From: Escherichia coli
GTDB lineage: Bacteria > Pseudomonadota > Gammaproteobacteria > Enterobacterales > Enterobacteriaceae
Assembly: GCF_045037415.1 (NCBI RefSeq)
Contig: NZ_CP173438.1
Direction: 5' to 3' (one strand)
DNA length: 64,000 nucleotides
Position numbers: made by a program
Part shown: positions 15,001-18,000 of the stretch, in pieces
How the letters are laid out: every line of letters starts with the position of its first letter
Numbering within the stretch: the first letter of the stretch is position 1

Positions 15001-18000
15001 TTGATTGCGCCTTCCATACCTTTAACAATCAGGTCTGCGGCTTCAGTCCAACCCATGTGGCGCAGCAGTATATAAAAATTATGTATTCAACTCGCTGATA
15101 TTTAATCATAAATATTATTTTCTTGTCTTTGTATTAGCCAAAATCAACTTTATTCAACCGTTTGATTTCATTGACGTTCGTTTTTATTTTGGGGAAAGAT
15201 TTTCTCTACCATTTATATCAAAATTACAAGTCTACATTTTATTAACATCTCAATACATGTGTGGCCTTGCAAGCCATTGCGAGGCCTTATGTGTCTCAGT
15301 TTTGTCCCGCCTTGTATTACGACTTGCATAGCCAATGAAGATAAACGTGACGACAAACAAAGCAGCTGTCTTCTTTTCTTTCACACTTTCCCCACTCAGC
15401 AGCATGCATACCTTCTACTATAACTGTAGTGAATGTCTATTATGAGCGAACTGCGGACATCGTGGAGACAACATGCTGCTGGGTGCGGATATCCCATGGC
15501 ACGTCATATCGCTCGCCGTATTACTTGTTATTTTTTTGAAACGAGAAGTTGATACAATTCCTTCAGGGATAAGGCTAATAACTCATTCTTCCTGATGAGA
15601 TCTTTATCAGCGTCTATACCCTCTGCGCATGATTCATTTAAATAGTTCAGTGTTTCCTGATCATCATCCAAGCATTCATAGCTGCCTGAATAAAATTCAT
15701 CGCAACTTGCTTTGTTATTTTTGTCAATGTAACCAATGCATTGAATCACGCCTTTAACAACTTTAGCAGCAGAAAAAACAAAGTAACTGCAGTCATTTAT
15801 ATAGCGTTCAATATCAAAAATCATATAAAAATAGTGCATAGAGTGTTTTTCAATTTCAAACTCACTTGAAATCATAGCTATTTCACATTCAAGGTCTTTC
15901 AGACCATCTAACATTATGGAAAGTTTACATTGTTTTTCTTGCACAGTTTCATACTTAAATGACTCTCTCCCCTTTGCCCTGACATTTATTCTTTCTTCAA
16001 TTGCATAAATATAAGCAGGATATACACGCGACCACACTTGGTTTATTTTTAGGATTAACCGGCCTCTTTTCAGCCTTTCTTTTGTAGCTATAAATTCTGC
16101 ATATAGCGCAGCATCCTCTTCGCACCATACATCAACTTTTCGTTTATAACCCAACTTTAATTCTTTCCCTACGCATTCAGGAAACAAAGGATCAAAGTCC
16201 TTTAAGTATTCAAACTCACTTAGATAGAATCCTGTCTCATAACGATTAAATAATTTCCTAAACTCTTTCCCACTTAAGGTTTTCATTGTATCAATCACTC
16301 TGTTTTCATAAAAGCAAAGTCAACAAGATAAAACAATAAAAACTCTTACACAACCAGCTGATGTTTTTAAAATAGAGGATAATATAAGACAAGCATAACC
16401 TCGTTCACTTCAATGCTACTCCTATCGTTCTTTTGCGTCACAGAGCGCCTGCCGGACAACTGCATCATAGACCAAACGGAACTGCTTCCGTCGATTAATC
16501 AGATGGCAGCGCATAAACACGCTCAACAACCCGTTTGACTGCTTCAATTTTAAGCTCTTCGGAATAACGCTTACCGTGTAAGTCTCCCTGCAAAACGAGC
16601 TATCAACTTTTAAGGAGTCTCTGGCCCCCCTGCTTCCGCTCCTGGCACACAGCAGCCCTAGAGACAGTGGAGTAAAGTCATGGAGGCTCGGTGGGGGGAG
16701 GTGCAAATCCTCCCATACAAAAAATACGAAAATCAGTAACGGCTAGAAATCATTCAATACATGCACTCTCGAAATTGCATCAGCCAACCGCAAAACGTTA
16801 TTTCAAAGCCTACTAGCTGCCTTACTTTTTTCCTCAATAACGCGTCGCCAGCAGGAAACAACCTAATCCCTGTTTTGGGCCTCAAAGCTGCTAATGATAA
16901 TCATTTTCATTTTGTATAGGCTGTGCTATAAAACATAGCCGTTGCTATATTTGTTCTAATTTTGCTCACTATAGGTACTAAATTATGCACTCGATAAAAA
17001 AAGTAACCATGCTCTTGGGGGGGCTCGCACTCACCTGCTCGATCGCATTTCAGGCAAGTGCAACTGAAAAATTCAAGGTCATTACAACATTTACCATCAT
17101 CGCGGATATGGCCAAAAACGTGGCGGGAGATGCTGCAGAAGTCTCATCCATAACCAAGCCTGGTGCAGAAATTCATGAGTATCAGCCTACCCCTGGCGAT
17201 ATTAAACGTGCGCAGGGGGCACAACTGATTCTCGCCAATGGTATGAATCTGGAATTGTGGTTCCAACGCTTTTACCAGCATCTCAATGGGGTTCCAGAAG
17301 TAATTGTCTCTTCGGGTGTGACGCCTGTAGGGATCACCGAAGGACCCTATGAGGGCAAACCTAACCCCCATGCATGGATGTCGCCAGATAATGCTCTGAT
17401 TTACGTCGATAATATTCGTGATGCGTTGATAAAATACGATCCGGCAAATGCACAAACCTACCAACGCAATGCCGATACTTATAAAGCCAAGATTACCCAA
17501 ACCCTTGCCCCCCTGCGTAAGCAGATTACGGAACTCCCTGAGAATCAGCGATGGATGGTCACCAGTGAAGGGGCTTTTTCTTATCTCGCACGCGATTTGG
17601 GGCTAAAAGAGCTTTATCTGTGGCCGATTAATGCCGATCAACAAGGAACACCGCAGCAGGTACGTAAGGTTGTTGATATAGTTAAGAAAAATCATATCCC
17701 GGCAGTCTTTAGCGAGAGTACGATTTCCGATAAACCAGCGCGTCAGGTTGCGCGTGAAACCGGCGCACACTACGGCGGTGTGCTCTATGTCGATTCCCTG
17801 AGCACAGAAAACGGCCCGGTACCGACGTATATCGACCTTCTTAAGGTTACTACCAGTACGCTGGTACAGGGAATTAAAGCTGGGAAAAGGGAGAAATAAT
17901 GATGCAATCTGCAGGCATTGTCGTTAATGATGTTACTGTCACCTGGCGTAACGGGCACACAGCACTGCGCGATGCATCCTTCACAGTACCAAGTGGATCT

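Follow-up and report, generated by a model that had tools for sequence, protein, structure and literature searches.

The window, by which we mean the whole 64-kb stretch of Escherichia coli DNA that was analysed, was 100% identical to chromosomes of ST131-type E. coli, e.g. JJ1887. Positions 14839..21218 matched coliphage 21 (OL657228) with 98.8% identity over 6,380 bp. The gene order in phage 21, and in the phages ev207, ev017, and PhiR63_2 (43–50 kb), is side tail fibre, two small genes, sitDCBA, a short transposase-like fragment, a 256-aa orphan gene, an icd 3' fragment, attP, and int. Between the tail fibre and attP at icd, the locus was nearly identical to phage 21 and syntenic with it. 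It is the b region of a coliphage 21-type lambdoid prophage integrated at icd, the dispensable arm that runs between these two points. As the interval studied here lies within the b region of an icd-integrating lambdoid phage, sitABCD is phage cargo. Phage 21 morons are known to include multigene virulence loci (Feiss et al. 2022, PMC9119081). The features are listed in Table 1.

Table 1. Positions in the window of the features discussed in the text.
Feature	Position	Strand	Remarks
icd 3' end, displaced (icdC-type pseudogene)	14904..15056	-	marks attR side of prophage
Orphan-gene cassette	15443..16653	-	1.2 kb; order H/Ld, IS fragment, ~205 nt, 256-aa gene, H' half-site
H' half-site	15443..15458	+	TGAGCGAACTGCGGAC, minus strand GTCCGCAGTTCGCTCA; right breakpoint, joined to lambda-like backbone
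Orphan gene, 256 aa	15528..16298	-	phrog_20520
32-aa ORF containing the orfA fragment	16495..16593	-	TTG start; called mechanically
IS3-family orfA fragment	16504..16576	-	dead internal fragment; IS nt 69–142, codons 3–27, nt 135 deleted
Ld, conserved non-coding element (59 nt)	16576..16634	-	AGCAGGGGGGCCAGAG...TTGCAGGGAGACTTACAC
H motif	16635..16657	-	GGCTGCTG-TGTGCCAGGAGCGGA; left breakpoint of orphan cassette
Lambdoid backbone piece, normally after the tail-fibre-assembly gene	16635..16805	-	80% to lambda b region, 85% to sit-less prophage L006
sitABCD cargo block	about 16800..20449	+	sitA 16985..17899 through sitD 19577..20434
tfa 3' fragment adjoining sitD side	20450..20518	-	junction with ~10 bp microhomology
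Complete ISEc23 (IS66 family)	49152..51683		8-bp target duplication CAAAACCC

The orphan gene was assigned to a PHROGs family of unknown function, and searches of Pfam, NCBIfam, and PADLOC returned nothing for it. The AF2 model of its product (pLDDT 89.6) predicted a small N-terminal α/β unit and a long helical bundle, and Foldseek against the PDB gave generic helical-bundle matches only (E>0.1).

The minus-strand frame with an orfA-like start, which the preliminary description had pointed out between the orphan gene and sitA, was confirmed as a short ORF with the translation MQGDLHGKRYSEELKIEAVKRVVERVYALPSD followed by a stop. Its first five codons belong to the adjacent non-IS element, and the encoded peptide shared 17/27 identities with an intact OrfA in BLASTP (E 9e-11). 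At the DNA level, 16504..16576 was 85–92% identical to IS3-family orfA genes over 57–74 nt, with matches to hundreds of IS3 copies. On hundreds of E. coli chromosomes and plasmids, this segment was 85–88% identical to genes labelled 'transposase' or 'IS3 family transposase', and the best plasmid copies reached 92% over 64 nt. The E-values of these matches were 7e-20 locally and 1e-12 to 1e-16 in collections of 28 Gb and 7 Gb. Pfam HTH_Tnp_1 was detected on the peptide with an E-value of 0.0045, which is under the gathering threshold because the peptide is short; it spans just the first third of that domain. An NCBIfam search of the short ORF gave no match.

As the reference IS, we used a full-length relative of ~1.26 kb (~1,260 nt) from an IncX3 plasmid (L011). 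Its ends were IRL TGAATCGCC... and IRR ...GGCGATTCA (terminal sequences, TGAATCGCCACGG... and ...CCGTGGCGATTCA), and its OrfB scored 358.7 bits on the NCBIfam IS3 model NF033516. Stringent alignment placed the fragment on nt 69–142 of this element. The gene is indeed truncated, as had been proposed: codons 3–27 of orfA are all that is left, and the absence of IS nt 135 causes a frameshift and the stop of the short ORF. In a colinear relaxed alignment, 16300..16503 and 16578..16657 scored no better against the IS than shuffled sequence did, which ruled out a longer decayed IS. Moreover, blastn and tblastx searches of the 64-kb window with the full-length relative revealed no other piece of the same IS outside 16501..16589. 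The span first flagged as an IS remnant was thus IS-derived in only 73 of its 161 bases. The 80 nt upstream of the fragment were also considered as the left end or 5' untranslated region of the IS and were rejected: they scored like shuffled sequence and are homologous to an element that precedes unrelated genes and is never followed by this IS.

The fragment has orfA homology to the IS3 family and has neither the terminal inverted repeats (5'-TG...CA-3') nor the orfA-orfB arrangement with a DDE domain. Specifically, the IRL together with the 68 nt holding it, the start codon, orfB with its DDE (rve) domain, the programmed frameshift site, and the IRR are all missing. Because it has no ends, no start codon, and no catalytic gene, and is frameshifted, it can neither transpose nor encode a regulator. 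We regard these 73 bp as a genuine but non-functional, ordinary IS3-family relic.

The IS3 part of the original IS3/IS66-type assignment is upheld by the nucleotide identity described above, and the IS66 part is not. The heptamer cgcttac (16568-16574), which had been read as an IS66-like terminus, is the reverse complement of GGT-AAG-CGT, encoding Gly-Lys-Arg at orfA codons 3–5; in intact IS3 copies, these codons are found ~70 nt in from the left end. The window contains 12 occurrences of the heptamer. IS66 ends begin GTAAGCG, and IS66 TnpA and IS3 OrfA have an HTH_Tnp_1-type N-terminus in common. The heptamer at 16568 is inside the orfA codons and does not mark an end. Within the window, a tnpA-tnpB-tnpC set was found only at 49182..51598, and none of the ORFs near 16.5 kb was an IS66 tnp ORF. 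Terminal repeats with an 8-bp duplication were likewise absent from the flagged site. An IS66 origin of the fragment was ruled out, since the heptamer consists of orfA codons and the true ISEc23 lies 33 kb off with its own target duplication.

The orphan-gene cassette is bounded by sequences that we term H, Ld, and H'. The consensus of H is palindromic, TCCGCT-yTGTGCCArrA-AGCGGA (variant start TCCGCT/GCTGCT), and is sometimes followed by Ld. H', TCCGCTyyTCGCTCAyAGCGGAC, is an inverted relative of H and ends cassettes; in arrays, the junction order is H'-spacer-H. The H copy at this locus is a hybrid composed of a phage-side half and a cassette-side half. H together with Ld was nearly invariant among Yersinia, Erwinia, Tatumella, Citrobacter, Raoultella, Klebsiella phage-plasmids, a P2-like prophage, and a P4-integrase island. 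All examined Ld copies turn unrelated right after ...CTTACA(C/G), and the orfA fragment of this prophage starts exactly there.

Cargo bracketed by H and H' was found in lambdoid b regions, the P2-like hotspot, P4-integrase islands, CP4-like islands, and Klebsiella phage-plasmids, and is often defence-like (HNH, NYN, RelA/SpoT, HerA, HipA-like, DpnII/MboI-type nuclease domain, and FRG). The ea31-ea59 segment of phage lambda is also bracketed by the two motifs. A separate observation concerned a cassette of 1.25 kb that carries a 293-aa RHS-repeat gene. Its copies in a P2-like prophage and in three species of Yersinia shared 98% identity, but their flanks were unrelated; the homology begins in H and stops just past H'. 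Whole cassettes recur at 98–99.7% identity in unrelated flanks, with breakpoints inside H/H'. In an island, the junction forms three DNA hairpins (z -4.7), and the phage copies are hybrid or half sites with no fold, which is what breakpoints within the hairpins would give.

Other functions of these elements were considered and rejected. A structured RNA was not supported by Rfam (no match at E<=1 over 15300..17100) or by RNAalifold, which gave -5 kcal/mol and no compensatory pairs on 14 Ld copies. A sigma-70 promoter in Ld had no match on the minus strand, and cargo genes occur in either orientation relative to Ld. The frame of a small ORF in Ld was not kept among copies. No common recombinase was found beside the H/H' sites, the neighbours being a lambda-type Int, a P4-type Int, a serine recombinase, or nothing. 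We know of no convincing resemblance of the motif to ERIC or REP. A term search of Rousset et al. 2022 (PMC9122126) and of bioRxiv 10.64898/2026.02.27.708500 gave no description of the H/Ld/H' boundary sequences. The conservative reading is short-homology recombination at conserved 'linker' hairpins. We consider it unlikely that H and H' serve instead as dedicated sites of recombination or as the ends of non-autonomous mobile cassettes, i.e. an undescribed cassette-exchange system, and not ordinary terminators with short homology. If they do define mobile cassettes in lambdoid and P2-like phages, satellites, islands, and phage-plasmids, they would provide a sequence handle with which cargo and defence cassettes can be found and delimited, and would also hint at the mechanism of rapid swapping in phage hotspots.

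The orphan-gene cassette was also identified in other contexts. In E. coli RM10410, it was 99.67% identical over 1211 bp and was located in a cah/GTPase/integrase island without sit. In Citrobacter telavivensis, it was 89% identical, again without sit, and the orfA fragment carried the same 1-nt deletion; the fragment would therefore predate the divergence of the cassette copies. These comparisons indicated that the fragment belongs to the orphan-gene cassette and is separate from the sit block. In the orphan homologue of K. variicola, a deletion spans the interval that contains the fragment. The Mangrovibacter homologue carries, at almost the same position, an IS3-family piece of another kind (an IS407-like IRL, TGACCTGTCCCC…, plus orfA codons 1–48), and therefore IS elements may have shaped the history of the cassette, though not that of sit. 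Among complete E. coli genomes, ~740 of the ~742 records of the fragment and its junction also contained the contiguous sequence upstream of sitA, so that linkage cannot separate the fragment from sit in this species; no sit-less phage 21 relative was found. This co-occurrence reflects the spread of phage 21-type prophages.

The boundaries of the sit block were determined by searches with both junctions. Its end points, 16797/16800 and 20454/20461, were alike on ColV-type plasmids, in prophage KE55, and here. The backbone piece 16635..16805 matches the sequence after tfa in many lambdoid prophages and in phage lambda. In the sit-less prophage L006, the two backbone pieces are just 98 bp apart, and sit takes the place of those 98 bp here. 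At the right junction, tfa (…GGGTGTTGCTG) meets the sit block, whose end in the plasmid copy reads …GGATGTTGCTG, with ~10 bp of microhomology; the left junction has 3–5 nt. The sit junctions are thus microhomology joints, not IS ends. In KE55, which is next to uspF, the sit block occupies a different slot of the b region, after an H motif. IS1 and a Tn3 fragment flank the block on the ColV-type plasmid. AVS0068 has lost both the orphan gene and the orfA fragment to a deletion caused by an IS1. No canonical H' was seen by eye at the sitA-side end of the block in the KE55 and plasmid flanks.

Here, we propose the following history by summarizing the above results. Most probably, the fragment is a passive 73-bp IS3-family orfA relic at the head of the orphan-gene cassette in the b region of the phage 21-type prophage, with no detectable part in the arrival of sit. 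An IS3-family element would once have been located just after the Ld of the orphan cassette. Deletions or illegitimate recombination, presumably independent of transposase, would have taken away the 68 nt at its left end and all sequence past nt 142, and this trimming would have preceded the divergence between the cassette of E. coli and that of Citrobacter. Later, the cassette may have entered the phage backbone via recombination inside the short palindromic H and H'. sitABCD is a separate cargo block of the same phage arm, joined through the microhomology junctions. We infer that IS decay came first, followed by entry of the cassette into the phage and then by entry of sit.

It is possible, if somewhat doubtful, that the fragment instead records a role of an IS in building or moving the orphan cassette and not sit, for example if an IS3-family element had inserted at the head of the cassette and the gene had then been fused to Ld by deletions, either IS-promoted or illegitimate. 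The exact start of the IS fragment at the end of Ld, the unrelated IS3-family fragment fused at a similar position in front of the Mangrovibacter homologue, and the K. variicola deletion covering the same interval are consistent with such a role. However, neither junction of the fragment is an IS end, and therefore no step in building the cassette is demonstrably transposase-mediated. Furthermore, other Ld copies are followed by unrelated, non-IS sequence, which is more in line with a general hotspot of recombination than with the activity of an IS.

Far less probable is the original suggestion that the fragment is the scar of an IS-mediated event, either a composite transposon or IS-promoted capture, that brought in sitABCD. 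The fragment does lie ~410 bp upstream of the sitA start codon, IS1 and a Tn3 fragment flank sit on the ColV-type plasmid, and the fragment and sit occur together in ~740 E. coli records. However, phage backbone borders the sit block at both ends, no pair of IS remnants marks its boundaries, and the fragment is ~225 bp outside it. The 165 bp of backbone between them (16635..16799) are contiguous with the far-side backbone in sit-less phages. A partner IS end beyond sitABCD, which that suggestion called for, was not found: the full-length relative matched the window only at the fragment, which itself has neither IS end. In addition, the sit block is present in the KE55 prophage and on plasmids without the fragment, and the cassette with its fragment is present without sit in RM10410 and Citrobacter. 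Finally, a chance match or a domesticated helix-turn-helix regulator is scarcely credible: the subthreshold Pfam score, the empty NCBIfam search, and the opinion of the phage 21 annotators, who called the IS3 similarity 'unconvincing', are outweighed by the DNA match with hundreds of IS3 copies, 85–92% identical over 57–74 nt (E as low as 1e-16 to 1e-20), and by a peptide that covers the first third of HTH_Tnp_1, takes its TTG start from unrelated sequence, and ends at a frameshift common to the otherwise diverged Citrobacter copy.

The passive-relic explanation means that the account of sit being delivered by an IS is dropped, and that sitABCD in ST131-type E. coli is understood as cargo of a phage 21-type temperate phage. 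Closely related genomes of 43–50 kb that have the same arm have been recorded as phages; the virulence-associated Mn/Fe transporter encoded by sitABCD is therefore likely to spread by lysogeny and by recombination from one prophage to another. The orfA fragment itself is an ordinary feature in a phage region that has already been sequenced and annotated.

The fragment resembles several known sequences over the same part of orfA. IS3-family elements on IncX3 and IncF plasmids (L011 and L012) have the GKRY(P/S)EEFK(I/T)EAVK N-terminus in common with it, with 85–92% nucleotide identity at codons 3–27. The same applies to the insN fragment of K-12 CP4-6, called IS911A in EcoCyc/UniProt, and to the 'ISEhe3 orfA' of the Shigella phage SfIV record. 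Unlike known IS3-family elements, the fragment retains just 73 of ~1,260 nt and has no inverted repeats or orfB; as both IS ends are missing, it also lacks the flanks between which a short (3–5 bp) target duplication would be seen. In the phage 21 record (OL657228), the same interval is annotated as a 41-aa hypothetical CDS, which is out of frame; the present analysis adds to that annotation the IS3 match at the DNA level and its exact limits. Temperate-phage and satellite hotspots carry variable, frequently swapped cargo between conserved backbone genes (Rousset et al. 2022, PMC9122126; bioRxiv 10.64898/2026.02.27.708500), and small intergenic pseudogene remnants are common in them (bioRxiv 10.64898/2026.02.27.708500). 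The locus described here resembles these hotspots in both respects, having shifting cargo between backbone genes and being strewn with pseudogene remnants.

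The sit block (window 16800-20449) was found to have equal end points in the window, in the KE55 prophage (L014) and on a sit-carrying plasmid (L013). Two different slots of lambdoid b regions are occupied by it: the interval between the tail-fibre-assembly gene tfa and the backbone piece in the window, versus a position after the palindromic motif H in KE55. On the plasmid, the sitD-side end retained the last 6 nt of H (AGCGGA), and this remnant hints that plasmid sit was derived from a phage-type context. Another record, CP088398.1 (377 kb), which is labelled as an E. coli plasmid, contained the chromosomal ymgA-bluF-icd'-sit region with 100% identity; it probably represents a piece of the chromosome that was wrongly assembled or wrongly labelled.

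Variable cargo cassettes bracketed by conserved palindromic H and H', with the 59-nt Ld as an optional element, were also observed across Enterobacterales. Their settings included lambdoid b regions, a P2-like hotspot, P4-integrase and CP4-like islands, and Klebsiella phage-plasmids. Identical cassettes were found again between unrelated flanks, and the breakpoints fell within the H/H' motifs. No match of H, H' and Ld to a known family or mechanism was identified.

Coordinates of features in the window and in the compared loci
Feature	Locus	Position	Strand
Complete ISEc23-type element, IS66 family (tnpA, tnpB, tnpC)	window	49152-51683	(-)
Orphan gene, 256 aa, phrog_20520	window	15528-16298	(-)
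Conserved element, roughly 140-200 bp, adjoining the attR side	window	15250-15457	
H/H'/Ld sites	window	16576-16657 and 15443-15458	
H/H' sites	L004	2509/4321	
H/H' sites	L005	4005/5215-5260	
H/H' sites	L006 (sit-less prophage)	3078/4083-4145	
H/H' sites	L021 (lambda)	5150/8126-8154	
H/H' sites	L023	2378-6537	
Further H/H'/Ld examples	L060-L068		
Second IS3-family fragment (IS407-like left end and orfA codons 1-48)	L073 (Mangrovibacter plantisponsor)	2650-2890	

Homologues of the orphan gene (63-88% identity) were identified in Citrobacter, Klebsiella, Mangrovibacter and one Aeromonadaceae MAG. The protein had no match in Pfam, NCBIfam, PADLOC or PDB; a confident AF2 model (pLDDT 89.6) predicted a small N-terminal alpha/beta unit and a long helical bundle. 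In Mangrovibacter, the second IS3-family fragment, which is unrelated to the 73-nt orfA scrap of the window, was fused upstream of the homologue, almost exactly where E. coli and Citrobacter carry the scrap. IS3-family elements have struck the 5' flank of this gene family at least twice.

The ISEc23-type element lies within the prophage and is flanked by a target duplication of 8 bp (CAAAACCC). In strain AVS0068 (L015), window position 21218 was directly adjoined by DNA matching this element, indicating that the phage genes in between are missing there.

The conserved element on the attR side forms the right-hand flank of the variable cargo slot. It was shared, with 76-91% identity, by many lambdoid prophages at differing integration sites, including lambda itself, the BL21 prophage at ybhB, an O157 prophage and a torT-adjacent prophage.
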